DNA from: an uncultured bacterium | GTDB lineage: Bacteria; Hydrogenedentota; Hydrogenedentia; Hydrogenedentales; CAILVY01 | Length of the DNA stretch: 64,000 nt | Direction of reading: 5' to 3' | Assembly (NCBI GenBank): GCA_937951485.1 | Contig: CALEDJ010000004.1 | Span: 13,582 to 77,581, forward strand | In this document: one piece after another, positions 46,429 through 60,298 of the stretch | Layout of the letters: every line of letters begins with the position of its first letter | Numbering within the stretch: the stretch's first letter is position 1 | Position numbers and translations under genes: made by a program | Notes under the pieces: generated by a model | The model's database searches: none | What the model was told of the DNA's origin: nothing | The model's input: only the letters and a program-made list of their open reading frames with translations

Positions 46429-46842
46429 AGTGCTTGACCGCCTGATCAGGGTCGTCACCCGATAAGCCCAAGTCCCGACCCCTGGTATATGCCGTGCATG
46501 TTGATCGGCCTGTTCCGGGGAGGCCCCTCCCCGCCGCAACGACCGGCGTTCATCCTTCCGCTGCCCCACGCCCCGCCGTTCATCCTGCCCATGCGCCGAA
46601 TCATGGACTCATGGCAGCAGGGAGGCGTCGTCGCACACGGGCCGTCATTGCAAGCCCTCTTATTGTATCATGTCTAACGTTCCGGCGTCCATCCCCTGTG
46701 GCGCAATTCGGCCACGATGCACTCTTCTTTGTTGGTTGAGTCCGCGCTTACGCCGATGCGTCTTTTCCTGACGTGATGTTGGGTTCTTTTGCTTTTTCGT
46801 TATCTTATGGCCGAGTGGCGTGTAACGGGGAATGTCGTGTTT

Positions 46843-47111
46843 TTTTACATCCCCCGGCGCTTCGCGCCACCCCCTTCCAAGGGGGATTTTTGGAGGAAGT
46901 TTCGGGATAATGAGGTATTTATGAGCAAAAGTATCTTCCTTAAGCCTGCAAGTCACCTGTGAGCATTGCAGGGAAGTCCCCCTTTGAAGGGGGTGGCGCG
47001 CAGCGCCGGGGGAAGTCCCCCTTTTGAATGCGATGGCGCGCAGCGCCGGGGGATGTAAAAGACCAAATAGTGCGCCACGACAATTCATGCCATTCCGCTA
47101 AAGCATTACGC
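46843..47111. repeat. Cluster of three REP-like units CCCCCTT.GAAGGGGGTGGCGCG.AGCGCCGGGGGATGT plus the 63-bp dispersed repeat
   Basis: Copies at 46843-46886 (minus), 46977-47013 and 47016-47060 (plus); extension to 47111 matches 26901-26963. Confidence 0.8.
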
Positions 47112-47118
47112 TTTTTCT

Positions 47119-47454
47119 TTATCCGGGGAAGTGGTACTTCGCCGAACGAAATCCTGTGCGGCGGCATGGGCCGTGCCTTTCCACGCCGGTTACGACGCGG
47201 ATACCCGCTGCGGCCAATGTCCGGAAGGCCTTGGGACCGCAGTGGCCGGTGATGACGACGGACGCGCCCAGCCGCGATGCGTTTTCGGCGGCCTGAATCC
47301 CCGCGCCCTGCGCCGCATCCCGGTGCCGTGCGTTGTCATGCGTCTGAAATGCGCCTGTGTCGGTGTCAAACGCGATGAAGTATTTGGCGCGTCCGAATCG
47401 CGGGTCCGTCTTTTTGTCGAAAGACGGACCCGATGCGCTTATCGCGATACTCAT
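47119..47454 (-). CDS. NifB/NifX family Fe-Mo cluster-binding domain protein, C-terminus possibly scrambled by indels
   Basis: IAISA.G......DPRFGRAKYF, GAGIQAA, VITGHCGPKAF..L.AAGI; SD GGAGG. Confidence 0.8.
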   Translation of the reverse strand: MSIAISASGPSFDKKTDPRFGRAKYFIAFDTDTGAFQTHDNARHRDAAQGAGIQAAENASRLGASVVITGHCGPKAFRTLAAAGIRVVTGVERHGPCRRTGFRSAKYHFPG

Positions 47455-47478
47455 GCTTTCCTCCGATGGAAGTTGATG

Positions 47479-47796
47479 CTATTTCCCGGATGTCGCGCCG
47501 CGGATCGCGTCCAGCCGCGCTTTGATTGCGTCGAGTTGGGCCTGAAGTTGCGTCGCCTGGTTTTCCAGGATGCGTTGTTCGGCCTCGGGCGCAGCCGCAA
47601 GGGGCGTCCCGCCCCGGCGTATCCAGCCCGGCACGCCTGTCGCCCTAAAACAATTCCGGCGACCCCGGCCACGGCCGAAAAAGCCCATCCCCGGTGCGGG
47701 GTTGGCGCATCCCGCTGTGGCATATCCTGCGCAGAAGCCCAAGCCGCGGTCGGTTCTCGGTATTCCCATGGGTCTTGTTCCATTGCCTCTTGGCAT
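47479..47796 (-). CDS. DUF5320 family protein (degenerate)
   Basis: MPRGNGT.PMG, GRG.GFCAGY...G..NP, GRGRGRRN.F.ATG.PGW.R, C-terminal coiled coil. Confidence 0.75.
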   Translation of the reverse strand: MPRGNGTRPMGIPRTDRGLGFCAGYATAGCANPAPGMGFFGRGRGRRNCFRATGVPGWIRRGGTPLAAAPEAEQRILENQATQLQAQLDAIKARLDAIRGATSGK

Positions 47797-48101
47797 GAAT
47801 TTCCTCGCTTTCTTGAGCAGGTCACCCTGATTTCTACAGCGCGCCTTTTTTTCCTGCGCAGTCCTTTCGGCCTGCATCGTCTGGCTTAGTGTTGTCCTCT
47901 GCCCTGCCCGCGACCTTTCGCACCGCCCCCGCAGCCACGTCCGCCGCGCTCCCGCCTCACCCGCCGCAATGTCGCTTATTGTCACAGCCTGGCCGCTTCC
48001 GGGATGGGGTTCAAGCGGCGCGCCATATAGAAATGCTGTGACTTTTTTTGCATTCATAGCCAAATATATCATCTATGGATGTCTTGTTTTCGATAAAAAC
48101 T

Positions 48102-48197
48102 GTCGGACAGATCAGACATATAGGACGGATCGGACCCGTCGGAGGGGTTGGACAAGACAGAGGGGTTGGACAAGGCGGAGTGGCTGGACAAGGCGGA
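48102..48197 (+). repeat. GTCGGACAGATCAGAC motif followed by 3 x 18-bp tandem repeat
   Basis: 48102-48117 is a 15/16 match to the reverse complement of the 30592-30607 array unit; GGAGGGGTTGGACAAGRC-like units x3 from 48141. Confidence 0.65.
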
Positions 48198-48479
48198 GGC
48201 TTCAGACAATTGGATCAATGCCTGTTCAGATGTCAATCACATGATGTCGTTTTGGTGGACAGATTGTAATTTTCTTGCGCGCGAGATCAATTCGCATGGG
48301 GGCGCATTCGGGAAAGCGGTGCAGGGGCAAGCGCAGGGCTGATATTACTCACGGATCTTTCACTATCAATATTTTGTGGTCGTTTGAACGATTGATACCA
48401 TATCTAGGGCATATCGAGAATCCTTCATAAGTCTTTGTCGCGTCAGGAGAAATGGCGGCAGGAGGCCGAAAAAAATAAC

Positions 48480-48524
48480 TTGACAAAGTGGGACATTGGT
48501 GGTAAGTTATGGGTAATTTAGGGT
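48480..48524 (+). promoter_or_regulatory. dcw (mraZ) promoter with MraZ-box array
   Basis: TTGACA 48480-48485, N17, TAAGTT 48503-48508; GTGGGA/GTGGTA/ATGGGT/TAGGGT at 48488/48499/48509/48519. Confidence 0.75.
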
Positions 48525-48553
48525 TAGAAATTAGTTAAATCATGGGGATTGCG

Positions 48554-49036
48554 ATGTACTACGGGGAGTCGCAAGCGTCGCTTGACGACAAAGGCCGTTT
48601 GAATGTGCCGATGCAATTTCGGTCCATCATGGATATCCATGACCATGATGTCTGGTACATGACGCGGGGTTTTGACGGGGCGATTTTTGTTTTTGAGAAG
48701 GAGAACTGGCAGCGGCTGGTACAGCAAAGCGGGGGGCATTTGCCGCTGGAACCGCGGATGCTCGATTTTCGACGCTTGTTCCTGGGCGGGGTGGCGAAAG
48801 TGAAGCGGGATAACCAGGGGCGGCTGCCGGTACCGGCGCATCTGCGCGAGTATGCGGGGATTGACCGGGAGGCGGTGGTGCTGGGGGTGGAGGATCACCT
48901 GGAGTTGTGGAGCAAGGAGGGCTGGCGGGCTTTTCAGGACCGTCAGGCGGAAAGATACAAGGCAATGGCGGCCGAACTCTTTGGGCCGGGTTTGGGCGCG
49001 GCCGCCGCAACCAAGGGAGAAGTGCAGGGTGCTTAA
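48554..49036 (+). CDS. mraZ: Division/cell wall cluster transcriptional repressor
   Basis: LDDKGRL.VP..FR, D.QGRL..P..LREYAGI, VVLGV.DHLELW. Confidence 0.95.
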   Translation: MYYGESQASLDDKGRLNVPMQFRSIMDIHDHDVWYMTRGFDGAIFVFEKENWQRLVQQSGGHLPLEPRMLDFRRLFLGGVAKVKRDNQGRLPVPAHLREYAGIDREAVVLGVEDHLELWSKEGWRAFQDRQAERYKAMAAELFGPGLGAAAATKGEVQGA

Positions 49037-49376
49037 GATCGATCGCTTGGAGTCCGGCGCGGTAACGGTGCTGCGCCTCGAAGGGGACATTGACGAGGAC
49101 GGAATGAATCAGTTGCGGCTGGCGCTGACGTACTGCCTTCAGGACCAGCGCTGCCGGCTGGTGGTGAACCTCGAATCAGTCAACTTCGTAAGTTACATGG
49201 GGCTGGGGGTGCTGGTGGAGCGGCTGCGCCAGGCGCGTGCGTGCAACGGTGACCTCAAGTTGACGGGTATCAACGTTTATACTGATCGCCTGTTCCGGAT
49301 GGCGGGGGTCAGCAAGGTCTTCGAAATCTACAAGACCGAGAACCAGGCCATCCAGACCTACCGCGAAGCGGCCTGA
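49029..49376 (+). CDS. STAS domain protein (anti-sigma antagonist-like)
   Basis: GTG start overlapping the mraZ stop by 8 nt; LRLEGDID, LVVNLESVNFVSYMGLGVLV, GDLKL, F.IY.TE..A. Confidence 0.85.
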   Translation: MLKIDRLESGAVTVLRLEGDIDEDGMNQLRLALTYCLQDQRCRLVVNLESVNFVSYMGLGVLVERLRQARACNGDLKLTGINVYTDRLFRMAGVSKVFEIYKTENQAIQTYREAA

Positions 49377-49423
49377 TCCGGCCATTTCTCAGCGGGCCGC
49401 GGCGCGGCTGGCGGAGGAACGCC

Positions 49424-50365
49424 ATGGAGAACGGCGCACAGGCGCACGTGCCCGTGCTGGCAGAGACTGCGCTGGAATGGCTTGAAGTGAAGCCGGACGG
49501 CGTGTACGTGGATTGTACCGCCGGGGCGGGCGGCCACGCGGTGATGATTGCGGCGCGTCTGACCGCAGGCGGTCGCCTGCTCGCGATAGACCGCGACCCC
49601 ATGGCGGCGGAACTGGCGGCGGAACGACTGCGGGAATATGCCTGCGCCACCGTGGCGCGGGGCAATTACGGGAACTTGCAGGAAATCCTGACGGCGGCGG
49701 GGCTGGCGGCGGTGGATGGCATTCTCATCGATGCCGGACTTTCCAGCATGCAGTTGAATACGCCTTCACGGGGTTTCTCCTTTCAGGAGTCGGGACCGCT
49801 CGACATGCGCATGAACCCCGAACAGGGCGAGACCGCCGCTGCTTATCTGGCGCGCGTGACGGAGACGGAACTGACCGGGGTCCTGCGCCAATACGGCGAT
49901 GTCGGCCCGGCCCGGCGCATCGCGCGGGCGATTCTGCGCCGCCGGGCGGCGGACGCCCTCAAGAGCACGGACGATCTGGCCGACGCGGTGCGTGAAGCGC
50001 TGGAGTTTGTGCGCGGTGTCCCGGAGGAGATTCGGACGGTGTTTCAGGCGATTCGTATCGTGGTGAACGACGAATTGGGTCATCTGGAGCGCGGATTGCG
50101 CCAGGCCGTGGCCGCGCTGCGGCCCGGCGGACGCCTCGTGGTGATTTCCTTTCATTCCGGTGAAGACCGCGTGGTGAAGGGCGTGCTTCGCGAGGCATCG
50201 CGCGCCCGGCGGACGCTGCGGGAGGATGGACGAACATTGTCGGTGCGGCCGCCAGAGGTGCGCATCCTGACGCCCAGGCCGGTGCTTCCCGATGCCGACG
50301 AGATCGCGCGTAATCCACGGGCAAAGAGCGCGCGGTTGCGGGTCGCGGAACGCCTGGCGGAATAG
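49424..50365 (+). CDS. rsmH: 16S rRNA m4C1402 methyltransferase
   Basis: HVPVL, DCTAGAGGH, D.G.SSMQL, RGFSF, PLDMRM, FQAIRI.VN.EL, VISFHSGEDR.VK, NPRA.SA.LR. Confidence 0.97.
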   Translation: MENGAQAHVPVLAETALEWLEVKPDGVYVDCTAGAGGHAVMIAARLTAGGRLLAIDRDPMAAELAAERLREYACATVARGNYGNLQEILTAAGLAAVDGILIDAGLSSMQLNTPSRGFSFQESGPLDMRMNPEQGETAAAYLARVTETELTGVLRQYGDVGPARRIARAILRRRAADALKSTDDLADAVREALEFVRGVPEEIRTVFQAIRIVVNDELGHLERGLRQAVAALRPGGRLVVISFHSGEDRVVKGVLREASRARRTLREDGRTLSVRPPEVRILTPRPVLPDADEIARNPRAKSARLRVAERLAE

Positions 50366-50377
50366 GGAGAAGAGGTC

Positions 50378-51169
50378 ATGCACAAAATCAATCGTCGGGA
50401 ACAGCGGCGCGCATTGTATGGGTGGGTTCCATACGCGCCGCTTGTCGCCGTGGTGTTTGGTGTCCTGTTTTGCGACGCATGGCTCAACATCCAGACGCGC
50501 CGGACGGATTATGAGTTGGGACGGCTGAACCGGCGGATGCGGGAATTGCGGGCGGAATTGGATGCGCTGCGCGGGGAGCAGGCCGAACGCGAAGGCATCG
50601 GCCTGCTGGGGGACAAAGCGGCAGCGCTGGGGCTTGTGGAACCGGAACCCCGGCAGGTTATGCGCATAACCTATGATAAGCGCAGTGTCGTTCCACGCGA
50701 ACAGGCGCCGATGACCATCGCGCACCTGAATGCATCGGAAGACCGGCGGGATGCTGGACGCCAGGATCATCGGACTGCCACGATTCTACTTGATGCGCCG
50801 AAAATCTCTTCTCCCCATTCGGATGCGGCAGTCCAGGAGACGGCTGCGCCTGCGTTTCGTTTAACGCGCGCTCCGATGTCTCTGAGTCAGCGGGAATGCC
50901 TCAGCCCGGAGGGCGAATCACTCTTGCCGGACGTCATGGCCGCAATCAATCAGGCAAGGGCGGAGGTCCGGCCGGAACCTCCTATTCCCCCTGATGCGTC
51001 GCTTGATGTATTGGGCGTGGCGTTATCCCGCGAATCTATGGCGCAAAGCCCGCCGACGAATCCGCCTCATCATGACAGCCCGGCGGAAGACATCGTGCTG
51101 GCACCGCTGTTGGCGGATTTGGATCAGGAACTGAAAAAGGAATGGAAACTGTTAAACGCTTCGCTGTGA
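50378..51169 (+). CDS. ftsL: FtsL-like cell division protein with long C-terminal extension
   Basis: Position between rsmH and ftsI; TM, coiled coil, A..LGL.EP motif; ~170-aa Pro/Ala-rich tail. Confidence 0.7.
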   Translation: MHKINRREQRRALYGWVPYAPLVAVVFGVLFCDAWLNIQTRRTDYELGRLNRRMRELRAELDALRGEQAEREGIGLLGDKAAALGLVEPEPRQVMRITYDKRSVVPREQAPMTIAHLNASEDRRDAGRQDHRTATILLDAPKISSPHSDAAVQETAAPAFRLTRAPMSLSQRECLSPEGESLLPDVMAAINQARAEVRPEPPIPPDASLDVLGVALSRESMAQSPPTNPPHHDSPAEDIVLAPLLADLDQELKKEWKLLNASL

Positions 51170-51235: not shown

Positions 51236-53458
51236 ATGGTGAAACGGGACAGACGCGGCGCGGCGGCGGCTGAACGCTACGGCGGCGCGCCGGAAAAAGA
51301 AATGCGCAAGCGGATGCGGATATTGCTTGTCGGCTTCCTGGTGGTATTCTCCATTGTCGCGGCGCGTTTGTGTCAACTGCATTTGAATCCCCGCCTGGAA
51401 TTGACCGCCGAGGAACAATTCCACATCGGCCAGGTGGAATTGCGCGAACCGCGCGGCGAAATCTTTGATCGCAACGGCCTCCTGCTGGCGACGGACCGCC
51501 TTGCCCCCTCGCTGTGGGCAGACCCCCGCAAGGTGTCGGACCCGCACCGCCTGGCGGCGCTGATTCGGGAACGGATCGGCGCCGTCCCTGAGGATTTGGA
51601 AGAACGTCTGGGCAAATGCGACGCATCGGGCAATCCGCGGAAATTTGTCTGGGTCAAACGGTGGATCAGTGATGTGCCCGAATCGGTGTTTACCTCACTG
51701 GTGGAGGACAGCCACGGCGCGCTGGCCATTCAGCACGAGCCGGTGCGATATTACCCTCATCGCGACACTGCGGCGCATCTGCTGGGCTTTGTGAACCGCT
51801 CCGGCGAAGCCTCCGAAGGATTGGAACTGCTCTTTGACAATCACCTGCGGAGTGTGCCGGGACGCTACACCGCCCGCAAGGATGTGAACCGGCGGCTCCT
51901 GGATTCGCTCACCCTCGAATACACGCCGCCGAAGGGGGGCGACGCCGTGCAGTTGACGCTGGATACGGAAATCCAGCATGCCCTGGAGCGCGCGCTCGAC
52001 GCGCGTATCGAAGAGACCAGGGCGTCTCGCGGGATGGGCCTCATTATGAATCCGTATTCCGGGGCCATTCTGGCGCTTGCGACCCGGCCCGCCTTCGACC
52101 CCAACCAATACGACCAGTTTCCGGCGGAATTGCGCAAGAACAGCGCATTAATAGACGTGTTCGAGCCGGGTTCGGCGTTCAAGATTGTGGCGGCGGCCGC
52201 GGCGCTGGAACATCGCCTCATCACGACGGACACGTTGATTGACTGTGAGAACGGATCATTCAATCCCTACGGCCACCGTATCCGTGATGTGAAAAAGATG
52301 GGCGTGGTGCCTTTTTCCCGCGCCTTCGAGCAATCCAGCAACATCGCCATCATCAAAGTCGGGGCGATGCTGGGTCCGGAGCGCATGGAGGAATGGATAG
52401 TTCGCTTCGGTTTCGGCGCGCGCACGTGTCCGGATTTTCAGGTGGAAAGCGCCGGGATTTTCCGCCCGCGCAGGCAGTGGTCACGGCTGACCATGGGGTC
52501 TTTGCCGATGGGCCAGGAACTCGCTGTGACCATGCCGCAACTCGCCCGCGCGTTTGCGGTTATCGCCAATGGCGGCTATCTGGTGGAACCGTATTTCGTC
52601 GAGCGCGCCGTATCTCGCACGGGCGAGATCACCTATCAGCGGCGGCCCCCGGCGCGCCAGCGTATTCTCTCGCCGGAGACCGTGGACACCATGCGTGATC
52701 TGTGCCATCAGGTCGTGGCGCACGGTACGGGGCGGCATGCCGCCATTCCGGAATATCGGGCCGGCGGCAAGACCGGCACGGCACAGATGGCGCGCAAGGA
52801 CGGCCGGGGCTATGACCCGGACCGGGTGACGGCGATCTTCGCGGGCTTTGCGCCTGTGATGAATCCCCAAATTGTAGCGGTCTTCGTAATCCAGGAGCCG
52901 ATGGTGCGCCCGCATTACGGCGGCGTCATCTGCGGGCCTCTGTTCAAGAGCGTTGTGCGTGACGCGCTGATCCGCCTGCATGTGCCGGAGGATCCCATGG
53001 AAAAGGCTCCCGTCAAGAAGGACGGGAAGAAGTCCGGCCTGACAATGGCGTCCTCCAGCACCCCGCATGGCGCTCCGAACGACACGGGAGCACATGCAAA
53101 CGATGTGATCTGGGAAGACGCGGATACAGTGGCGGAAAGGGCGGAACTGGAAGCGTTCGCCCAGTCGCTTGACGCCATGATGCAGCCTTTGGACACGCTG
53201 CGTCTGGTTGCAGCGCCCGCAGATGCAACCAATTTCTCCAGCGCGGTATTACCCGATTTTACCGGGATGACCAAGCGCGAGGCGCTGGATGCGCTGCGGC
53301 GGCTCGGTGTCGCGTGGGACCAACAAGGCAGCGGTTGGGTGGTTGCCCAAGACCCGCCGCCGGGAACCCCGGTACCTGAAGTGGCCTATTGCGCGCTTGA
53401 ATTCTCAAACGTTCGGACGGAAATCCTTGAGAAAGATGACAAGAAAAGAACTTCTTGA
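51236..53458 (+). CDS. ftsI: Class B penicillin-binding protein with PASTA domain
   Basis: RGEIFDRNG, EPGSAFK (SxxK), SSN, KTGT, terminal PASTA-like PDFTG....EA. Confidence 0.93.
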   Translation: MVKRDRRGAAAAERYGGAPEKEMRKRMRILLVGFLVVFSIVAARLCQLHLNPRLELTAEEQFHIGQVELREPRGEIFDRNGLLLATDRLAPSLWADPRKVSDPHRLAALIRERIGAVPEDLEERLGKCDASGNPRKFVWVKRWISDVPESVFTSLVEDSHGALAIQHEPVRYYPHRDTAAHLLGFVNRSGEASEGLELLFDNHLRSVPGRYTARKDVNRRLLDSLTLEYTPPKGGDAVQLTLDTEIQHALERALDARIEETRASRGMGLIMNPYSGAILALATRPAFDPNQYDQFPAELRKNSALIDVFEPGSAFKIVAAAAALEHRLITTDTLIDCENGSFNPYGHRIRDVKKMGVVPFSRAFEQSSNIAIIKVGAMLGPERMEEWIVRFGFGARTCPDFQVESAGIFRPRRQWSRLTMGSLPMGQELAVTMPQLARAFAVIANGGYLVEPYFVERAVSRTGEITYQRRPPARQRILSPETVDTMRDLCHQVVAHGTGRHAAIPEYRAGGKTGTAQMARKDGRGYDPDRVTAIFAGFAPVMNPQIVAVFVIQEPMVRPHYGGVICGPLFKSVVRDALIRLHVPEDPMEKAPVKKDGKKSGLTMASSSTPHGAPNDTGAHANDVIWEDADTVAERAELEAFAQSLDAMMQPLDTLRLVAAPADATNFSSAVLPDFTGMTKREALDALRRLGVAWDQQGSGWVVAQDPPPGTPVPEVAYCALEFSNVRTEILEKDDKKRTS

Positions 53459-54902
53459 TCTGATTGGATGCCCCCAGGATGGCGGCCGGGAGTTTACAAT
53501 CACCGCTGTGACAGAGGACTCCCGGCGTGTGTGCCGGGGCGCGCTTTTTGTGGCTGTACGCGGGGCGCATGCGGATGGGCACGACCATGCCGAAAAAGCG
53601 GTCAAAGCGGGCGCAACCGCAATTCTCGGCGACCGGGAGGGCATAAAGGAACTACATGGGGTCCCTTATGTTCGTTTTGCAACGCCGCGCCGCGCGGCGG
53701 GCATTATCGCGCATGCGCTGTCGGGAAACCCCACGCGTGACATGACAGTCATCGGGATCACAGGCACGAACGGCAAGTCGAGCACCGCGTATCTGACCCA
53801 GGCGGTGCTTCAGCAGGCAGGGCATCCCACGGCGAATTTCGGCACCCTGGGCTATGAGATCGCCGGCGCGATGCACAACGCGCCCCATACCACGCCGTTC
53901 GGCGAGGAACTCGCCTTGCTTTTCATGCAGGCGCGCGACGCCGGGCATACCCATGTGGTCATGGAGGTCAGTTCGCACGCATTGGACCAGGACCGCGTGG
54001 CGGGCATTCACTTCACGGCGGGCGCATTCACCAATCTCAGCCAGGATCATCTGGATTATCACCAGGACATGGAACACTACCTTCGTGCGAAACTCAGGTT
54101 TTTTGAACTTGTCGAAGGCGCGGGTTGTTTCACCGTGGTGAACGCGGATGATCCGGTTGCGCCTCATTTTGTTGACGCCTCACGGGGAAGGTGCATCACT
54201 TTCGGGAATGCGGGGGACTGCCGCGCCGCGCACATCCGACCGGAAGTCGCCTCCACGCGCTTCACGTTGCACACGCCCTGGGGCAGCACTCCCGTAACAC
54301 TGCGGCTGGCAGGCCGCCACAATGTGTGGAACGCGCTGTGCGCCGCGGCGATCACGGGCGGGCTGGGCATCCCTCTGGATGCCATCGCAGAGGGACTGGG
54401 CGCCCTGACGCGCGTGCCCGGACGTTTTGAGGCGGTGGACGCCGGGCAGGATTTTCACGTCATCGTGGATTACGCACACACGGAAGACGGTCTGCGCAAT
54501 GTGCTGGAGGCGGCGCGCGCACTTTGCCGGGGCCGCATCATCACCGTATTTGGCTGTGGCGGCGACCGCGACAAAGGCAAACGCCCCAAGATGGGCGCGA
54601 CGGCTGCGCGTCTCTCGGATTTCTGCGTGGTCACCAGCGACAACCCACGCACGGAAGACCCGCATCGCATCCTGCTTGACATTGAAGTCGGCCTGCAGCG
54701 GGAAGGCAAGCGCAAGAACGAGGACTATCTGGTGATTGAAAGCCGGGAAGAGGCCATTCGCGCGGCCATTGGCATGGCGCGTGCGGGTGACCTGGTGATG
54801 ATCGCGGGCAAAGGCCATGAAACCTATCAGATCGCAGGAGACCAGCGGATTCCCTTCGATGACCGGGAAGCGGCGCGCGCAATTCTGACGGAACGGCGGT
54901 GA
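53436..54902 (+). CDS. murE: UDP-MurNAc-dipeptide--amino acid ligase
   Basis: GITGTNGKSS, HTTP, MEVSSH, FTNLSQDHLD, VDYAH, FGCGGDRD, DNPR (meso-DAP-type motif), AGKGHE. Confidence 0.97.
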   Translation: MTRKELLDLIGCPQDGGREFTITAVTEDSRRVCRGALFVAVRGAHADGHDHAEKAVKAGATAILGDREGIKELHGVPYVRFATPRRAAGIIAHALSGNPTRDMTVIGITGTNGKSSTAYLTQAVLQQAGHPTANFGTLGYEIAGAMHNAPHTTPFGEELALLFMQARDAGHTHVVMEVSSHALDQDRVAGIHFTAGAFTNLSQDHLDYHQDMEHYLRAKLRFFELVEGAGCFTVVNADDPVAPHFVDASRGRCITFGNAGDCRAAHIRPEVASTRFTLHTPWGSTPVTLRLAGRHNVWNALCAAAITGGLGIPLDAIAEGLGALTRVPGRFEAVDAGQDFHVIVDYAHTEDGLRNVLEAARALCRGRIITVFGCGGDRDKGKRPKMGATAARLSDFCVVTSDNPRTEDPHRILLDIEVGLQREGKRKNEDYLVIESREEAIRAAIGMARAGDLVMIAGKGHETYQIAGDQRIPFDDREAARAILTERR

Positions 54903-56266
54903 GCATGGGATGGCGCTGCACATTGCGGGAACTGGCGGACGCCATCGGCGCGGAATTCCCTGACTGTGCGGATCCGGAGACAGCGTTCAGCGGCGTGTCC
55001 ACCGACACGCGGACCCTGCGTCCAGGCGAGGTTTTCTTTGCGTTGCGCGGAGATCGCTTCGACGGCAACCGTTTCGTGGACGAGGCGATCCAGAAAGGCG
55101 CGGCGGCGGCGGTCTGCATGGAAAGGGGCGGATCGGGGCCGCGCCTGCTTGTGGATGATGCGTTGGGGGCATTGCAGCGTTTCGCTGCCTGGCATCGGGC
55201 GCAGTGGCATATCCCGGTCATCGCCATCACGGGTTCCTGCGGCAAGACTACGACCAAGGACTTGATCGCGGCCTTGCTGTCCTCAAAATATGCCGTGGTG
55301 AAAACCGAAGGCAACCTGAACAACGAGATTGGCTGTCCGCTTTCCCTGTTGCGCCTGGATGATCACGCGCAGGCGGCCGTGATTGAGATGGGCGCCAATC
55401 ATATGGGGGAGATCGCGTCGCTGTGCCGCATCGCGCGGCCCACGGAATCGGCAGTGACGATGGTGGCGCCCGCCCACTTGGAGGGCTTTGGGAGTATCGA
55501 GGGCGTGGCCCGCGCCAAGGGCGAAATCGCCGAAGGGCTTCCGGCCGATGGATGCTTTTACGTCAATGCCGATGATCCCTGGTGCCGATGGATCGGCGAC
55601 CGGTTCCCCGGCGAGAAGGTTTTTTTCGGGCGCGCCGGCGATGTCGTGTTGAAACGTTGTGCGCCGGACGCTTCCGGTGAGATGGTACTGGATGTGGCGC
55701 CGGTGGGCGCGTTGCGGTTGCCGTTGCCCGCACCGACCCATGCGGCCAATGCACTGTTGGCAATTGCCGTGGGATTGCGACACGGCATTGCGGAATTTGA
55801 AGGGCCGTTGCGCGAGGCGTGCCGCGCATCGGTGCGTTTCCGCACGCTGCGCGTGGGACCGTTGCAGGTTCTTGACGACAGTTATAACGCCAATCCGGCC
55901 AGCATGGCGGCGGCGCTCGAGGCGCTGGCGTTGCGGGCGCGTGGCGGCAGGCGCATTGCGGCGCTCGGCGCGATGCTGGAATTGGGCGGGGAAGCCGCCT
56001 TGTGGCACCGACAGGTCGGCGAGACCGCCGCGCGCCAAGGGGTGACGCATCTCTTTGCACGGGGGCCGAACGCCCGTGATATGATTGAAGGCGCGCGCGC
56101 CGCCGGCGTTCCCCATGCGGAATGCATCGAAGAACACGACGCCATCGCCCGGGTTGTGCGCGAACTTGCGGAACCGGGTGATTCCCTTCTGGTCAAAGGG
56201 TCGCGCGGCATGCGCATGGAGCGCGTCATCGAGTGTCTGCGCGCCCTTTACGGAGAATCAACATGA
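54899..56266 (+). CDS. murF: UDP-MurNAc-tripeptide--D-Ala-D-Ala ligase
   Basis: AITGSCGKTTTK, GNLNNEIG, EMGANH.GEI, DDSYNANP.SM, G.MLELG, KGSRGM. Confidence 0.96.
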   Translation: MSMGWRCTLRELADAIGAEFPDCADPETAFSGVSTDTRTLRPGEVFFALRGDRFDGNRFVDEAIQKGAAAAVCMERGGSGPRLLVDDALGALQRFAAWHRAQWHIPVIAITGSCGKTTTKDLIAALLSSKYAVVKTEGNLNNEIGCPLSLLRLDDHAQAAVIEMGANHMGEIASLCRIARPTESAVTMVAPAHLEGFGSIEGVARAKGEIAEGLPADGCFYVNADDPWCRWIGDRFPGEKVFFGRAGDVVLKRCAPDASGEMVLDVAPVGALRLPLPAPTHAANALLAIAVGLRHGIAEFEGPLREACRASVRFRTLRVGPLQVLDDSYNANPASMAAALEALALRARGGRRIAALGAMLELGGEAALWHRQVGETAARQGVTHLFARGPNARDMIEGARAAGVPHAECIEEHDAIARVVRELAEPGDSLLVKGSRGMRMERVIECLRALYGEST

Positions 56267-56327
56267 CGCGGCGGCATTATTACATCCTTCGCAGAAGCCA
56301 TGCGGCGCGCCGTCGAAAGGACAATCC

Positions 56328-57812
56328 ATGCTGTATTACCTCGCGCTGACATTGAAACCATATATCGGCGCGATGAACGTACTCACCTATCACACCGTGC
56401 GCGCCGGCGGCGCGGCGATTACAGGATTCCTGTTCTGTCTGCTTTTCGGCCCCGCCATCATCCGCGTTCTGCGCGAGTTCAAGATCGGCCAGATCATCAA
56501 GAAGGACCACGTGGCCGACTTGCATGCCCTGCACAAAAGCAAGGCGGGCACGCCCACCATGGGCGGGACGATGATTCTGCTCTCGACGGTCTTGTCGCTG
56601 CTCTTGTGGGGTCGGTTGAACAACCGGCTCTTATGGTTGGCGATCATGGTGCTGCTGCTGCTCGGTGCGGTGGGATTCATTGACGATTACATCAAACTGA
56701 AGCGCAAACACAACGACGGACTCAGCGCGCGCGCCAAGTTCGCCGGTCAGATTATCACCGGACTGATCCTTGGCCTGTATCTGATCGGCAACCCAATCAC
56801 CGTAAGCGCCACCTACCTCTATCCCCGCGATGTCACGGACTGGCAGGCGCTCTCGAAAGCGTTCCTGACGGCAATTCAATCCGATGCCCCGTCGCCGGTG
56901 CGCGCGATTTGGCTGCACATGCCGCTTGAGGCGCGGCAGAAAACGGCCGAGGCCGCCCCGCACGCGGTGGAATCGCAGGAAGCGCGCCGGGAATTGCTGC
57001 AGGGGTTGAACAGCGTGCTGGGCCAACGCCGGCTTTATGACCCCAATCTGTGGCCGGACGAGATGCTGACGCCGGAAGCCCGGGCGCTGATCGCGCGAGA
57101 CCCGCAAACCCTGGGCGATCTGGAGGTGGTTCGTCTGGACCGCCTGCTGGTTGAGGCGGCGCTGCCGGAGGCCGTCGCCCACAGCGTGCCCAACCTCCAC
57201 ACCAAGGTGGGTATTCCCGGTTTCAAGGATACCTACCTCCCCCTGGGGCCGATCTACGTGTTGTTTGTTATCCTTATCATCGTGGCGGTGTCCAATGCGG
57301 TGAACCTCACCGACGGATTGGATGGCCTGGCGGGGGGCGCGTCGGTGATCTCCATCCTGACCTATGCAGGCATCGCCTACGTGGTGAGCCGCGCCGACTG
57401 GTCGCAGTATCTTTTTGTCACCTATGTGCCCGAAGCGAGCGAATTGTTCGTTTTTGGCGGGGTGCTGCTGGGTGCGGGCTTGGGTTTTCTGTGGTTCAAT
57501 GCGCATCCCGCGGAGATCTTCATGGGCGACACGGGATCGCTTTCACTGGGCGGTGCGATCGCGGCGCTGGCCATTCTCACCAAGCAGGAATTGCTGCTCC
57601 CGCTGGTGGCGGGGCTTTTCGCCTTGGAAGCCGCCAGTGTAGTGATTCAGGTGGCTTCTTTCAAACTGACGGGCAAACGGGTATTTCGCATGGCCCCCCT
57701 TCATCATCATTTTGAGTTGATGGGCTGGTCGGAAACCAAGGTGACCATGCGCTTCTGGATTATCGCGCTGCTTCTGGCGCTCATGAGTTTCAGCACGCTT
57801 AAACTCAGATGA
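56328..57812 (+). CDS. mraY: Phospho-N-acetylmuramoyl-pentapeptide transferase with ~134-aa insertion
   Basis: K.GTPTMGG, GFIDDY.K, SNAVNLTDGLDGLA, FMGDTGSL.LGG, FRMAPLHHHFE; start 56328 after AAAGGA. Confidence 0.96.
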   Translation: MLYYLALTLKPYIGAMNVLTYHTVRAGGAAITGFLFCLLFGPAIIRVLREFKIGQIIKKDHVADLHALHKSKAGTPTMGGTMILLSTVLSLLLWGRLNNRLLWLAIMVLLLLGAVGFIDDYIKLKRKHNDGLSARAKFAGQIITGLILGLYLIGNPITVSATYLYPRDVTDWQALSKAFLTAIQSDAPSPVRAIWLHMPLEARQKTAEAAPHAVESQEARRELLQGLNSVLGQRRLYDPNLWPDEMLTPEARALIARDPQTLGDLEVVRLDRLLVEAALPEAVAHSVPNLHTKVGIPGFKDTYLPLGPIYVLFVILIIVAVSNAVNLTDGLDGLAGGASVISILTYAGIAYVVSRADWSQYLFVTYVPEASELFVFGGVLLGAGLGFLWFNAHPAEIFMGDTGSLSLGGAIAALAILTKQELLLPLVAGLFALEAASVVIQVASFKLTGKRVFRMAPLHHHFELMGWSETKVTMRFWIIALLLALMSFSTLKLR

Positions 57813-57827
57813 AACAGGCGGGGACAG

Positions 57828-59189
57828 GTGGAACTTCGCGGAAAAGACGTCGTGATCGCGGGCATGGGGCGCTCGGCGGTGGGCGCGGCAAAACTGTTGC
57901 AGGCGCGCGGCGCGCGCCCTTTTGTGAGCGACAGCAATCATGGGCCGTTTCTGGATGCCCATCGCGCCGCGCTGGATGCCTTGGGCGTCGCCTATGAATG
58001 CGGCGGCCACACCATGAGCCGCTTCGAGGAGGCGGATCTCGTGGTGCTCAGCCCCGGCGTGCCCCCCGCGATTGCACCCGTGGCGCAGGCGCGCGCGCGC
58101 GCCGTGCCGGTCCTGGGGGAACTGGAACTGGCCTGGCGGTTCTGCCAGTCATGTGTGATTGCGGTGACCGGCACCAACGGCAAGACCACAACGACGGAAC
58201 TGCTGTACGCCATGGTCGCCGCCTGCGGGCGCAGCGTGGCGCTGGCTGGAAACAACGACACGCCCCTGTCGCTGGCGGTGTTGGAGACCCCCCCCCCGGA
58301 ATTCATTGTCCTGGAAGTCAGCAGTTATCAACTGGAAAGCGTTGAGATGTTTCACCCGTGGATTGCGGCGGTGCTGAATCTCACCCCGGATCACTTGGGT
58401 CGTCATGGCACGATGGATGAATACGCCGCGATGAAAGCGCGGATTTTCGCTCGCCAGACAAGCGGCGATATTGCTGTTGTGAACCGGGACGATCCCTGGA
58501 CGACGGCGATGCCTGTCCCACCGGGTGTGCGGCGCATGGGGTTCAGCCTGACGGAGCGTATTACAGACGGCTGTTGGACGGACGGCGCAAACATATGCCA
58601 TGGCGACGAAAGAGTGGCGGCGCTTGCCGATAATCCGTTGCCGGGACGACACAATCTGGCCAATGTGCTTGCGGCGTTGACGATGATGCGTGCGGGCGGT
58701 TTCGATTGGAAAGGAGTACTGACAGGGTTGCGTCAGTTCCGGGGGGTGGAGCATCGCATTGAGCATGTGCTCACGCGCGATGGCGTGGACTACTACAACG
58801 ATTCCAAGTCCACGAATGTGGACAGTCTTCGGGTCGCGCTGGAGAGTTTCGACCGGCCTGTCGTGCTGATTGCCGGCGGACGGGGCAAAGGCGCGGATTA
58901 CCGCGTACTGCGGCCCCTGATCATGCGCAAGGTGAAACATATGGTCACGCTGGGTGAAGATGCGCCGTTGCTCGAAGCGGCCTTCAGCGACCTTGTGCCC
59001 GCCCTACGCGCCGAAAGCATGGCTGAGGCGGTGGCGCGCGCGCGCGCGGCGGCTTCTCCCGGCGACGTGGTGTTGCTCTCGCCGGCCTGCGCCAGTTTCG
59101 ATATGTACGCCAATTTTGAGGAACGCGGCCGCGATTTCAAGCAGTGTGTAAGAACCCTGCTCGCGGCAAGAAGGGAAGTGTCAGCATGA
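57828..59189 (+). CDS. murD: UDP-MurNAc-L-Ala--D-Glu ligase
   Basis: SPGV, AVTGTNGKTTT, LEVSSYQLE, NLTPDHL.RH, HRIE, YNDSKSTN, SPACASFD...NFEERG. Confidence 0.97.
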   Translation: MELRGKDVVIAGMGRSAVGAAKLLQARGARPFVSDSNHGPFLDAHRAALDALGVAYECGGHTMSRFEEADLVVLSPGVPPAIAPVAQARARAVPVLGELELAWRFCQSCVIAVTGTNGKTTTTELLYAMVAACGRSVALAGNNDTPLSLAVLETPPPEFIVLEVSSYQLESVEMFHPWIAAVLNLTPDHLGRHGTMDEYAAMKARIFARQTSGDIAVVNRDDPWTTAMPVPPGVRRMGFSLTERITDGCWTDGANICHGDERVAALADNPLPGRHNLANVLAALTMMRAGGFDWKGVLTGLRQFRGVEHRIEHVLTRDGVDYYNDSKSTNVDSLRVALESFDRPVVLIAGGRGKGADYRVLRPLIMRKVKHMVTLGEDAPLLEAAFSDLVPALRAESMAEAVARARAAASPGDVVLLSPACASFDMYANFEERGRDFKQCVRTLLAARREVSA

Positions 59190-60298
59190 AATACGACACA
59201 TGCGCCCTGATGCTTGCTGTCCTGGCGCTCGTGCTGCTGGGCGTGCTGATGGTGTTCAGCGCGAGCGCCGTCGGAGGCGCCTCCGGCGGACTGCTGAACC
59301 GGCAAATTGCTTTTGCCACGGCGGGACTCGCCGCGCTGCTGCTGTTGTCGCGTTTCGATTACCACCGGTTTGCGGACCCTGTTGTGTATGTCACGCTCGT
59401 AGTATTCTCTTTTGCGCTGTTGTGCCTGGTGCTGGTGCCGGGGTTGGGGGTAGAAGTGGACGGCGCGCGCCGGTGGCTGCAAATCAAGTGGTTCCGATTT
59501 CAGCCTTCGGAACTGGCGAAATTCGCCCTGATAGTGCATCTCGCGGTGAAAATGACCGAAAACAGCGACGAAATCCGGCGTTTCTGGCGTGGTTTCATGC
59601 CGCCTATTGCCATTGCAGGTTCTTTTTCGGCGCTGGTGTTGCTGGAACGCGATCTCGGTGTGCCCGCGATGATGATGGCCACGGCATGGCTGATGATGTG
59701 CGTGGCCGGCGTGCGATGGCGGTATTTGCTCCTCAGTGCGGCGCCGATTGCGGCGCTGGGCGGCCTGTTGGTCGTCTTTGCGCCGCACCGCCTGATCCGC
59801 CTGCTGGCCTTCATCAATCCGTGGGAGTACCGCAGCGGGGCGGGATGGCAACTGATCCAGTCCTATTCGGCGTTTGCGCGGGGCGGCGTGTGGGGACAGG
59901 GCATGGGCGCGGGCGAACAGAAATTGGGCTATCTGCCCGCGGCCCACACCGATTTTATTTTCCCGGTCGTGGGCGAGGAATTGGGGTTGGTCGGCACCCT
60001 CTCCGTCGTGGCGCTCTTTGTTCTGCTGACTTGGATGTCGTACAGGATCGCCGTCAACGCCATGGATCATTTCGGAGCGTTGCTTGCCGCCGGCATCGGC
60101 ATCATGATCTCGTTTCAGGCCGCGTTCATTATGGCGGTGACCACGGGTCTCCTGCCCACCAAGGGGTTGCCGCTGCCGTTCATCAGTTATGGCGGCACCT
60201 CGCTCATCATATTCATGGGGATGGTCGGTGTGCTCATGAACATCGGGGCGCATGCCGTCGCCGCGGGCGCCCGCAAACCCCTGATGGCGACATCCTGA
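59186..60298 (+). CDS. ftsW: SEDS family peptidoglycan polymerase FtsW
   Basis: GARRW, FQPSELAK, GG..G.G.G...QK..YLP.AHTDFIF....EE.G, LPTKG.PLPFISYGG. Confidence 0.93.
   Translation: MKYDTCALMLAVLALVLLGVLMVFSASAVGGASGGLLNRQIAFATAGLAALLLLSRFDYHRFADPVVYVTLVVFSFALLCLVLVPGLGVEVDGARRWLQIKWFRFQPSELAKFALIVHLAVKMTENSDEIRRFWRGFMPPIAIAGSFSALVLLERDLGVPAMMMATAWLMMCVAGVRWRYLLLSAAPIAALGGLLVVFAPHRLIRLLAFINPWEYRSGAGWQLIQSYSAFARGGVWGQGMGAGEQKLGYLPAAHTDFIFPVVGEELGLVGTLSVVALFVLLTWMSYRIAVNAMDHFGALLAAGIGIMISFQAAFIMAVTTGLLPTKGLPLPFISYGGTSLIIFMGMVGVLMNIGAHAVAAGARKPLMATS

Follow-up and report, generated by a model that had tools for sequence, protein, structure and literature searches.

The 64-kb stretch of Hydrogenedentota DNA analysed here (the window) carries a dcw cluster in whose head a gene for a single-domain STAS protein is lodged between mraZ and rsmH. 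These three genes are tightly packed on the same strand, behind a promoter with MraZ-type boxes. The features of the locus are the following:

48480..48527, plus strand: dcw promoter with MraZ-operator-like boxes, as read from the sequence (putative MraZ binding)
48554..49036, plus strand: mraZ, 160 aa, ATG at 48554 (PF02381, 8.8e-26; TIGR00242, 1e-24)
49013..49019, plus strand: Shine-Dalgarno-like AAGGGAG for the STAS gene, within the mraZ 3′ end and 9 nt ahead of the GTG
49029..49376, plus strand: STAS gene, single-domain, SpoIIAA/RsbV class, 115 aa, GTG start, TGA stop (PF01740, TIGR00377)
49191..49202, plus strand: codons S55-Y56-M57-G58 of the STAS gene, equivalent to D57-S58(P)-S59-G60 of SpoIIAA
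49368..49373, plus strand: codons Ala114-Ala115 (GCG GCC), then TGA; ssrA-like, putative ClpXP degron
49424..50365, plus strand: rsmH, 16S rRNA m4C1402 methyltransferase (PF01795, 8.9e-90; TIGR00006, 6.1e-87)
50378..51169, plus strand: ftsL-like gene, 263 aa, N-terminal transmembrane segment and coiled coil; position conserved in related loci
51236..60298, plus strand: rest of the dcw cluster, ftsI to ftsW, the last genes of the cluster in the window (Pfam), namely
51236-53458, plus strand: ftsI with PASTA (Pfam)
53289-54902, plus strand: murE ORF (Pfam; mechanical ORF start, true start probably further downstream)
54899-56266, plus strand: murF (Pfam)
56085-57812, plus strand: mraY ORF (Pfam; mechanical ORF start, true start probably further downstream)
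57828-59189, plus strand: murD (Pfam)
59144-60298, plus strand: ftsW (Pfam)

The promoter is made up of a TTGACA (48480-48485) and a −10 region reading TAAGTT. Its boxes, GTGG at 48488 and 48499 followed by the degenerate ATGG at 48509 and AGGG at 48520, recur with a period of 10-11 nt and overlap the −10 region, and TRF finds an 11-nt period at 48501-48524. GTGG boxes with this period in a dcw promoter are read as MraZ-type (PMC12957436). The combination of TTGACA-N17-TA[AG]NTT with GTGG[TG] repeats is found 5′ of mraZ in most of about 65 related loci. Since the N-terminus MY[YF]GE is conserved (63 loci), mraZ is taken to start at 48554, an alternative ATG at 48542 being less likely. Its TAA stop (49034-49036) leaves an overlap with the STAS gene of exactly 8 nt, so that the original prediction of a 115-aa STAS gene overlapping mraZ and separating it from rsmH was accurate. 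In orthologous MraZ tails, matching ..EG.. or ..KGG.. codons occupy the Shine-Dalgarno-like site. There is no terminator-like site between mraZ, the STAS gene and rsmH, the Rfam search over 46400-50500 gave a single chance-level match, and the read-archive matches to the sequence are DNA metagenome runs only. Further downstream, the ftsL-like ORF weakly matches NF053549 (FtsL_Actino, 1.2e-07), under the cut-off of that profile. Encoded on the same strand, with no terminator and at a position conserved across species, the STAS gene is by its layout a member of the dcw operon, putatively co-transcribed with mraZ and rsmH.

Family, fold and spread of the STAS protein

The protein matches PF01740 (1.3e-16, 60.7 bits; cut-off 22.6) and TIGR00377, “anti-sigma factor antagonist” (3.6e-20, 71.9 bits; cut-off 53.45), and falls under the cut-off of the spore_II_AA equivalog TIGR02886 (55.6 bits against 114.75). 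Its AlphaFold2 model (pLDDT 95.9; five strands and four helices) has the canonical STAS fold, with the G-D-x-D loop kept. The best Foldseek match is SpoIIAA in its complex with SpoIIAB (1th8_B; TM 0.89, rmsd 1.4 Å, 28% identity), the TM to RsbV is 0.81, and the closest structures are those of SpoIIAA with SpoIIAB, RsbV with RsbW and RsfB with UsfX. Conservation is strongest on the protein-binding face, that is, in the β2-α1 loop and α2. With SpoIIAA and RsbV the protein shares fold and size, an ungapped alignment, a G-D/E-x-D loop and the “GxGxL” motif of α2. It differs from them in missing the TIGR02886 cut-off, in that none of its orthologues has a phosphorylatable Ser or Thr at the N-terminus of α2 (D-S-[ST]-G in SpoIIAA), in the lack of a co-encoded kinase or anti-sigma factor, PP2C phosphatase and sigma factor, in its place between mraZ and rsmH, and in its invariant C-terminal Ala-Ala. 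MlaB, the STAS subunit of the MlaFEDB transporter, is likewise a small non-switching STAS binder of a non-sigma partner, but the score with its profile NF033618 is 17.5 (cut-off 90), the structural similarity is weaker (TM 0.55-0.67) and no mla genes lie near the STAS gene. On sequence grounds, the gene is real and strongly conserved, and its product is a single-domain protein of the SpoIIAA/RsbV class.

At least 129 close homologues were found (54-100% identity; 107-135 aa, most of them 114-118). Seventy-one genome loci were retrieved, 66 of them with an upstream flank, and the order mraZ-STAS-rsmH is kept in 65 of these 66 species-level genomes; rsmH comes next in every locus with a downstream flank. 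The only locus without an upstream mraZ (L022), which has a different N-terminal 18 aa and lies on a contig of 1.3x coverage, was taken as a rearrangement or misassembly. In an independent metagenome sample chosen by RsmH similarity alone, the STAS gene stands between mraZ and rsmH in all 12 loci with a close RsmH and in 1 of the 51 with a distant one, which agrees with the lineage-restricted dcw member originally proposed. In flanking genes, gene order and MraZ-box promoter the locus matches the canonical dcw head of other bacteria (mraZ-rsmH-ftsL-ftsI), but here an extra conserved gene splits mraZ and rsmH, which abut in 37 of the 51 distant-RsmH, non-Hydrogenedentota loci. The same gene order recurs in six divergent loci (L072, L073, L075, L076, L078 and L079), and one divergent unclassified lineage keeps it with an RsmH only 37% identical. 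Mean identity to the orthologue in the window is 60% for the STAS protein and for MurE, 59% for RsmH, 53% for MraZ, 51% for the PBP and 35% for FtsL. Conserved synteny and the number of homologues put the feature far beyond chance, and the gene order across these genomes makes the STAS gene a fixed dcw member not only in Hydrogenedentota but also in one or more other deep, unclassified lineages. A full-text literature search yielded nothing relevant on STAS with mraZ, dcw with an anti-sigma antagonist or Hydrogenedentes with mraZ, and in a review of STAS-only proteins there is no mention of cell division or of a Tyr variant.

In the main clade the STAS gene begins within the 3′ end of mraZ (47 of 66 loci). 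In a second lineage it is to rsmH that the gene is coupled, overlapping it by 4 nt in L076 and L079 and ending 5 nt ahead of it in L078; such overlaps therefore do not point to MraZ in particular, and translational coupling was rejected as decisive evidence that MraZ is the partner. Two further loci, L071 (24% identity, Bacteroidota) and L077 (canonical NSSG, beside secDF), were set aside as unrelated generic STAS genes. A phage origin was considered on account of P0182, a protein 40% identical and ending in AA within a phage-like gene set (L074); the lead was dropped, and scans of IMG/VR found no viral relatives of the STAS protein. In another high-GC lineage (L126, L133, L140 and L146), the place between mraZ and rsmH is taken by a different ORF, likewise conserved and about 68 aa long.

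The phosphoacceptor column and the C-terminus

The gapless alignment to SpoIIAA first proposed, in which D-S-S becomes S-Y-M, is borne out: both the HMM profile and MAFFT align the protein to SpoIIAA of B. subtilis and G. stearothermophilus without gaps through the phospho-site, f-v-s-y-l-g-v-G in the profile facing F-M-D-S-S-G-L-G. This pairs S55 with D57, Y56 with the phosphorylated Ser58, M57 with S59 and G58 with G60. According to DSSP of the model, helix α2 (residues 56-71) begins with Y56 and has S55 as its N-cap. Is it then the tyrosine that matters? In the main clade the column holds Y, F, W or C, with Tyr in at least 90% of sequences and replacements by Phe (L017, L023, L034), Trp (L039) and Cys (L062) in operons that are otherwise intact, and in the divergent dcw-linked clades it holds N, Q, I, V, A or M. 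No mraZ-linked orthologue, whether from the main clade or from the divergent ones, has Ser or Thr there. Because Ser and Thr never occur and the residues vary, loss of the switch would be the family trait and Tyr incidental, its hydroxyl being dispensable given the replacements listed. To judge from the alignments, the STAS protein is not switchable at the canonical Ser, as had been anticipated, whereas the companion idea of a Tyr-modified regulator does not survive the natural substitutions. The survey of synteny and motif that had been proposed shows the mraZ-STAS-rsmH order to be kept, and in these alignments SYMG is a clade trait, not a family trait.

The neighbouring position 55 is Ser in 67 of the 68 main-clade orthologues and Thr in the other, never Asp or Asn, which leaves room for a shifted phosphosite in the main clade. 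The divergent dcw-linked clades have D or N in that column (IDQVSAG, IDIISIG, INAVGFG, INATGLG). Unrelated single-domain STAS proteins, too, often have a Tyr at the phosphoacceptor position, for example in INYLSIG, VNYMTVG and VDYAGMG.

The most conserved special feature of the family, absent from the original prediction, is the invariant C-terminal Ala-Ala. All 68 main-clade STAS genes end in Ala-Ala-stop, and since every one of the four Ala codons and three stop codons is used to this end, selection acts on the protein. The divergent dcw-linked clades end in AA, or in VA in one clade. The tails follow the pattern [YF]-[RQA]-[EKQL]-A-A, with ..FKLAA, ..RLVA and ..YAAA in divergent clades. The ClpXP consensus is [LFYW][LAR]LAA, with a critical Ala-Ala at its end (PMC10862746; PMC7652416), although Ala-Ala alone is insufficient and short tags work poorly (PMC10862746). 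Measured against it, the aromatic residue at −5 and the R, Q or A at −4 fit, but E, K or Q at −3 do not, the common Glu standing where ClpX prefers Leu; some clades have L or V there. By analogy with described degrons (PMC7652416, PMC10862746, PMC7142297), the C-terminus is ssrA/ClpXP-degron-like and the protein is probably degraded by proteolysis.

Neighbourhood, proposed mechanism and alternatives

About 60 ORFs spread over the entire window were scanned with Pfam, and none matched a single-domain GHKL (RsbW-type) anti-sigma kinase, a PP2C/SpoIIE phosphatase or a sigma factor, in line with the earlier reading that neither such a kinase nor a sigma factor is nearby; the sole HATPase_c domain in the window belongs to a PAS-GAF-HisKA sensor histidine kinase (19849-22797). 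Nor is there a GHKL anti-sigma kinase or sigma factor among the called genes of L072-L079, or an anti-sigma or sigma gene within flanks of 2.5-6 kb on each side in about 100 related loci. The insertion is shared with many genomes, its orthologues are without DSSG, and no canonical anti-sigma factor is linked to it, so that none of the three refuting conditions set for the original proposal holds. A response-regulator-PAS-GGDEF gene (61468-62769) is not part of the conserved block, nor is it conserved among related loci. Among the nearest relatives outside dcw clusters is P0138, a zf-HC2 anti-sigma domain (PF13490, 25.5 bits; cut-off 22.2) fused to a STAS domain of the ISYMGVG type, and L070/P0142 has an N-terminal extension with H-x3-C-x2-C. 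These fused paralogues have neither the Ala-Ala tail nor the dcw context, and may therefore work differently.

Other STAS proteins work outside the textbook scheme. RsfA of M. tuberculosis is redox-controlled, not phosphorylated, and pairs with the anti-sigma factor UsfX. SypA of V. fischeri and RbaV of R. capsulatus are active when unphosphorylated, their targets being unknown (PMC8256260). Like the present protein, the three are single-domain STAS proteins whose output departs from the sigma-release cycle or whose target is unknown, but SypA and RbaV keep the Ser and a cognate kinase, and none of the three is a dcw operon member or has a known conserved terminal degron. For the C-terminus, CtrA-type Ala-Ala degrons follow the same logic as the degron of Streptomyces SigmaAntA. 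The latter is an orphan ECF sigma factor, a regulator without its usual protein antagonist, under ClpXP control via a C-terminal Ala-Ala kept in 67 of 71 orthologues (PMC7142297). The resemblance lies in the loss of the usual post-translational antagonist or switch together with an Ala-Ala-COOH in nearly all orthologues; the difference is that SigmaAntA and CtrA belong to sigma factor and response regulator families, and that degradation of the STAS protein is proposed by analogy with them.

With moderate confidence, the protein is best explained as a STAS binder that works independently of phosphorylation and whose amount depends on the MraZ-controlled promoter and probably also on proteolysis. 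The protein would not be toggled by phosphorylation but would act as a stoichiometric binder, through the usual STAS face (the β2-α1 loop, the N-terminus of α2, and α3), and its activity would be set by its amount. Synthesis would follow the MraZ-autoregulated transcription of dcw, often with translational coupling to mraZ, and removal would depend on an ssrA-like C-terminal degron read by ClpXP. With synthesis set by MraZ and removal by ClpXP, the level would track current dcw expression, tying the activity of the partner to the division programme. The first candidate for its partner would be one of the operon neighbours, MraZ or RsmH, ahead of an anti-sigma-type protein encoded elsewhere and, last, a component of the divisome.

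How do the alternatives compare? A classical anti-anti-sigma factor, binding an unlinked anti-sigma factor of the GHKL (RsbW/SpoIIAB) or zinc-finger (ZAS) type, would differ from the amount-controlled binder solely in naming the class of partner; as it could not be phosphorylated it would be a constitutive antagonist, switching a sigma regulon on in proportion to dcw expression. The closest structures, all of them complexes with anti-sigma factors, the conserved G-[DES]-x-[DE] loop and α2 helix, the zf-HC2-STAS fusion and the cysteine-containing extension of L070/P0142 all speak for such a factor, but partner-switch modules of this kind are usually co-encoded, and the searches of the window and of the flanks of about 100 loci, together with paralogues devoid of the Ala-Ala tail and dcw context, make it unlikely. 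If phosphorylation did persist, it could have moved by one residue, with an unlinked Ser/Thr kinase acting on the S55 N-cap in the main clade, where Ser or Thr is kept to the exclusion of Asp and Asn although these are equally good N-caps, and Asp the canonical one. This is improbable given that Ser is common as an N-cap, that the divergent dcw-linked clades have D or N there and no conserved Ser or Thr nearby, that the window holds no kinase of this system or PP2C, and that the bulky residue 56 occupies the position which, in SpoIIAA-SpoIIAB, goes into the active site of the kinase. A regulatory role of Tyr56 itself, by Tyr phosphorylation or another modification, would account for the prevalence of Tyr in the main clade exactly at the phosphoacceptor position; the Phe, Trp and Cys of that same clade, the six other residues of the divergent clades and the frequency of Tyr in unrelated STAS proteins leave it next to no credibility.

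STAS domains that bind nucleotides or anions are reported in two papers (PMC8256260; PMC5613929), a precedent for a domain that would sense a small ligand or nucleotide (GTP/ATP, c-di-GMP, fatty acid) and report the metabolic state to the division operon. The GGDEF gene in the window might be called in its favour, but that gene's position and lack of conservation, the absence of any identified ligand-binding motif in the STAS protein and the concentration of conservation on the protein-binding face render a sensor highly improbable. A more serious contender, though still on the unlikely side, concerns the tail: the Ala-Ala could be a partner-binding or fold-stabilising element instead of a degron, in a STAS protein that is stable and constitutively active. 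It sits at the end of the predicted helix α4 (residues 104-114; pLDDT about 82 in this last block), so that little free tail would be available, and the suboptimal Glu at −3 and the insufficiency of Ala-Ala alone point the same way. Against this, the last two residues are invariant while −3 to −5 vary and the tail changes in length (..RERAA, ..EVAA, ..NPAAA, ..YAAA), a pattern more readily explained by recognition of a free Ala-Ala-COOH than by packing of the helix, and the VA, LVA and LAA variants are ssrA-like.

Implications for the dcw cluster and for STAS proteins

To our knowledge, neither the control of MraZ activity nor the pairing of MraZ with a 16S rRNA methyltransferase has been explained so far. 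Gene order by itself suggests that the STAS protein may have a division-related role. A bolder conjecture, quite speculative, is that regulators of the MraZ/RsmH pair, differing from lineage to lineage, are encoded in the gap between the two genes, and that the occupant in Hydrogenedentota and a second deep lineage, the switchless, ClpXP-timed STAS protein, binds MraZ directly as an anti-repressor, or else divisome partners without any RsbW. Such an anti-repressor would be comparable to AbbA acting on AbrB or SinI on SinR, these being AbrB-fold regulators. If this were true, dcw transcription would time itself, and the ORF of about 68 aa found at the same place in the other high-GC lineage would have solved the same problem independently.

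A third gene between mraZ and rsmH, conserved throughout the phylum and beyond it to a degree like that of MurE, points to an unrecognised component of this module and offers a testable protein, for which the pipeline label “anti-sigma B factor antagonist” is probably misleading. It would show cleanly, in a natural case, how a STAS partner-switch protein has moved from phospho-control to control by amount and proteolysis, and such a conversion would widen the known repertoire of STAS-domain-only proteins.

A STAS gene fixed between mraZ and rsmH

The dcw cluster of the window opens with mraZ and rsmH separated by a gene for a small STAS protein, and it is laid out as follows:

48480-48485, forward strand: perfect TTGACA -35 element upstream of mraZ (sequence)
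48488 and 48499, forward strand: GTGG boxes, with degenerate boxes at 48509 and 48520; period of 10-11 nt, overlapping the -10 region
48554-49036, forward strand: mraZ (ORF list and sequence; PF02381, 8.8e-26)
49013-49019, forward strand: Shine-Dalgarno-like AAGGGAG, 9 nt upstream of the STAS GTG
49029-49376, forward strand: STAS gene, 115 aa, GTG start and TGA stop (ORF list and sequence)
49034-49036, forward strand: mraZ stop codon TAA (sequence)
49424-50365, forward strand: rsmH (PF01795, 8.9e-90)
50378-51169, forward strand: ftsL-like gene (ORF list)
Downstream of the ftsL-like gene, forward strand, in this order: ftsI (with PASTA domain), murE, murF, mraY, murD
59144-60298, forward strand: ftsW, end of the dcw cluster in the window

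An upstream ATG at 48542 is a possible alternative start for mraZ; 48554 was retained because the N-terminus MY[YF]GE is kept in 63 related loci. Given the position of the mraZ TAA, the two genes overlap by exactly 8 nt. After ftsW the cluster halts, with no murG, murC or ftsQAZ in the window; beyond it come HlyIII and an inositol monophosphatase, both on the minus strand, with a response-regulator-PAS-GGDEF gene (61468-62769) between them. Just upstream of the operon, in divergent orientation, lies a very large CoA-enzyme-activase-type gene (BcrAD_BadFG and DUF2229, 1505 aa; 42052-46569, minus strand), separated from it by small Nitro_FeMo-Co (47119-47454) and DUF5320 (47479-48072) genes. Three copies of a GC-rich, REP-like palindromic unit of ~40 nt, one inverted and two direct, stand between the activase gene and this pair (46838-47065). 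Two tandem repeats, one of 9 nt x 3.7 (48103-48135) and one of 18 nt x 3.3 (48140-48199, unit CGGAGGGGTTGGACAAGG), lie in the intergenic stretch that precedes the dcw promoter.

Is the gene merely a local insertion? A protein search returned at least 129 close homologues (54-100% identity; 107-135 aa, most of them 114-118 aa), those named belonging to Candidatus Hydrogenedentes/Hydrogenedentota. One genome per GTDB species was then scanned, yielding 71 loci ascertained through STAS, in which gene order was read by tblastn with the window's six dcw proteins. Wherever flanks are present the order is mraZ-STAS-rsmH-ftsL-ftsI-murE, with rsmH immediately 3' of STAS in every informative locus and mraZ immediately 5' in 65 of 66; the sole locus without mraZ upstream (L022) has a divergent N-terminus and comes from a 1.3x-coverage contig. 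Because this sample was ascertained through STAS itself, a second was drawn from metagenome contigs picked by RsmH. All 12 loci with a close RsmH (at least 53% identity to the window's, and more than 450 nt of upstream sequence) read mraZ-STAS-rsmH, so that the placement described in the original prediction extends beyond this genome in both samples. Among 51 loci of other lineages with a distant RsmH (47% identity or less), a single one carries a STAS gene (L099, whose STAS belongs to the same family but to a divergent clade of low GC), and in 37 mraZ directly abuts rsmH. On average STAS is 60% identical to the window's protein; the corresponding values are MurE 60%, RsmH 59%, MraZ 53%, PBP 51% and FtsL 35%. 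By this measure the STAS protein is conserved as well as the operon's enzymes. Its gene belongs to the operon as a fixed component and is no isolated insertion.

In another high-GC lineage, whose RsmH is 43-44% identical to the window's, an unlike conserved ORF of ~68 aa occupies the slot (L126 ~2260-2466; L133 2255-2464; L140 ~1760-1964; L146 ~2255-2463). It follows the pattern MVRKA..EV[R]RLQ.RLE..RG.AY..VEFS[DE]DVRGLL.RLEAGATLS.YVH and matches no Pfam family; a further locus, L154, has a 677-nt gap at the junction. Different lineages may repeatedly use the mraZ-rsmH junction to house small proteins of their own.

Most related loci carry TTGACA-N17-TA[AG]NTT and three or four GTGG[TG] boxes upstream of mraZ, and the arrangement at 48480-48527 agrees with published MraZ boxes. 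No terminator-like site was found between mraZ, STAS and rsmH. In 47 of 66 loci STAS begins within the 3' end of mraZ. In a second lineage the tight join is instead with rsmH: STAS runs 4 nt into it in L076 and L079 and stops 5 nt short of it in L078. The overlap is therefore a mark of a compact operon and singles out no one partner.

A STAS fold that has lost its phosphoacceptor

The 115-aa protein scores above cut-off for STAS (PF01740, 1.3e-16) and for TIGR00377, "anti-sigma factor antagonist" (3.6e-20), and below the SpoIIAA equivalog cut-off. Its AlphaFold2 model, built on a 33-sequence alignment, has a pLDDT of 95.9 and the expected secondary structure (beta1 3-9, beta2 12-21, alpha1 23-38, beta3 43-54, alpha2 56-71, beta4 75-79, alpha3 83-92, beta5 99-101, alpha4 104-114). 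The top PDB match is Geobacillus stearothermophilus SpoIIAA in its complexes with SpoIIAB (TM 0.89, rmsd 1.4 A, 28% identity), followed by TM1442, RsbV with RsbW, and RsfB with UsfX. By score and fold, it is a member of the STAS/anti-sigma-antagonist superfamily. MlaB and the SLC26 STAS domains are clearly remoter, and an identity as MlaB was rejected.

Across the phospho-site the family profile aligns with SpoIIAA ungapped (f-v-s-y-l-g-v-G against F-M-D-S-S-G-L-G), and MAFFT agrees: S55 falls on D57, Y56 on the phosphorylated Ser58, M57 on S59 and G58 on G60. In the predicted model alpha2 begins at Y56, with S55 as its N-cap. The overlap, the split gene pair and the ungapped alignment had all been described correctly from the sequence, as ORFs, family scans and both alignments confirm.

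Divergent relatives were sought twice, exhaustively with an HMM against 1.84 billion representatives and then by a word-indexed search. Context look-ups place far more divergent STAS proteins of ~115 aa in the same slot: P0141 (L072; mreBCD upstream, RsmH 56% identical to the window's), P0270 (L073) and P0273 (L075), of 36-37% GC and with clade members named Hydrogenedentes, and the second lineage, P0274 (L076), L078 and L079, with rplM-rpsI upstream, an RsmH only 37% identical and closest named relatives called merely "[bacterium]".

Residues at the four site positions in the joint alignment with SpoIIAA
SpoIIAA: DSSG
Main clade, the close orthologues (window, P0060): SYMG, SFMG
P0141 clade: SNKC
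P0270 clade: DQVS
P0273 / P0278 clade: DIIS, DVLS
Second lineage (P0274, P0275, L078, L079): NAVG, NMTG, NATG

Main-clade members with a residue other than Tyr have Phe (L017, L023, L034), Trp (L039) or Cys (L062), and in one member Thr stands in for S55. No mraZ-linked member has Ser or Thr at the phosphoacceptor column, where Tyr is one occupant among many; we conclude that the canonical phospho-switch was already lost in the ancestor of the dcw-linked family. Regulation through a modified Tyr, as had been proposed, does not survive this variety of residues and is no conserved mechanism. The phospho-site could possibly have shifted to Ser55; since divergent clades have D or N at that column, such a site would be restricted to the main clade.

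Tyr is also found at this column in many unrelated single-domain STAS proteins (for example P0184, P0185, P0199, P0232 and P0268; motifs such as INYLSIG, VNYMTVG, LNYAGIG and VDYAGMG), suggesting a widespread "Tyr-type" class that is presumably non-phosphorylatable and apparently undescribed. Helix alpha1 contains a cysteine, Cys36, with at least 90% conservation among main-clade sequences (family alignment A1); the P0141 and P0270 clades have it too, those of P0273 and P0274 do not. A redox role has been reported for M. tuberculosis RsfA.

Among ~60 ORFs spanning the whole window, Pfam scans detected neither a single-domain GHKL Ser-kinase nor a PP2C or sigma factor, the sole HATPase_c belonging to a PAS-GAF-HisKA sensor kinase 26 kb distant; the earlier statement that no anti-sigma kinase or sigma factor lies nearby is borne out. 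Nor are there partner-switch genes among the called genes of the divergent loci L072-L079. Whereas a canonical partner-switching antagonist has a phospho-Ser and a linked kinase/anti-sigma factor, phosphatase and sigma factor, the window's protein has none of these, and so fails the defining features of the type.

A conserved Ala-Ala terminus

The most conserved special feature of the family is its C-terminus, with Ala-Ala directly before the stop codon in each of the 68 main-clade genes. The first Ala is encoded by GCG (45), GCC (17), GCA (3) or GCT (3), the second by GCC (31), GCG (24), GCA (9) or GCT (4), and the stop is TAG (30), TGA (19) or TAA (19); such variety means that selection acts on the protein, not on DNA or an overlapping signal. 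The distance to rsmH varies from overlap to ~245 nt, and Ala-Ala is kept through changes in tail length (..RERAA, ..EVAA, ..NPAAA, ..YAAA, ..SLAA, ..RVAA). Only one low-GC clade has Val-Ala instead (..RMVA, ..RKVA, ..RLVA), and its sister ends in ..FKLAA or ..FKRAA.

In ssrA-class ClpXP degrons a free Ala-Ala-COOH is the critical determinant (PMC7652416; PMC10862746), although by itself insufficient, the preferred context being [LFYW]-[LAR]-L-A-A (PMC10862746). The STAS tail, [YF]-[RQA]-[EKQL]-A-A, agrees except at -3, and it terminates a helix in the AlphaFold2 model. SigmaAntA, an orphan regulator lacking the usual antagonist and controlled by ClpXP, has Ala-Ala in 67 of 71 orthologues (PMC7142297), a direct precedent for the logic of a switchless STAS protein with Ala-Ala, whose own degradation we only infer. 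We give removal by ClpXP, taken alone, a little under an even chance of being correct.

A possible regulator set by its amount

How might a STAS protein without a switch be controlled? It would act as a stoichiometric binder through its conserved canonical face, formed by the G19-D20-x-D22 loop, alpha3 residues N82, R87, R90 and M91, and a stretch of alpha2, G58-x-G60-V-L-V-E-R-L-R, that hardly varies within the main clade. Since a non-phosphorylatable STAS protein is expected to bind constitutively, regulation by amount would naturally take the place of the lost switch, with abundance, and hence activity, determined by synthesis from a putatively MraZ-autoregulated promoter and by putative removal through ClpXP. 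Overall, we consider it an even call that this is an abundance-controlled, phosphorylation-independent, division-linked regulator.

The conserved slot suggests MraZ or RsmH as its partner, while the structural class and the nearest non-dcw relatives suggest an unlinked anti-sigma-type protein; a divisome protein is also possible. Among these relatives, P0138 (182 aa) joins a zf-HC2 anti-sigma domain with a STAS of the ISYMGVG type; P0142 (L070 577-1254) has an H-x3-C-x2-C N-terminal extension before its STAS, P0145 (267 aa) combines STAS with an Mrr_cat restriction-endonuclease domain, and none of the three ends in Ala-Ala. A separate homologue, P0182 (L074 4001-4351; 40% identical to the window protein, tail ..WRAAA), sits outside any dcw cluster among a row of phage-like genes (RNA_ligase, DUF5131, N6_N4_Mtase, MT-A70). 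This may be the host regulator copied onto a mobile element; scans of IMG/VR gave no relatives.

Non-canonical STAS-only proteins are already known (PMC8256260). Full-text literature searches turned up no account of one that belongs to a dcw operon, of one defined by absence of the acceptor throughout its family, or of one ending in a conserved degron. The significance of the finding is tempered by uncultured hosts and a purely inferential function; the STAS gene nonetheless splits one of the most conserved gene pairs of bacteria, across the whole phylum and beyond.
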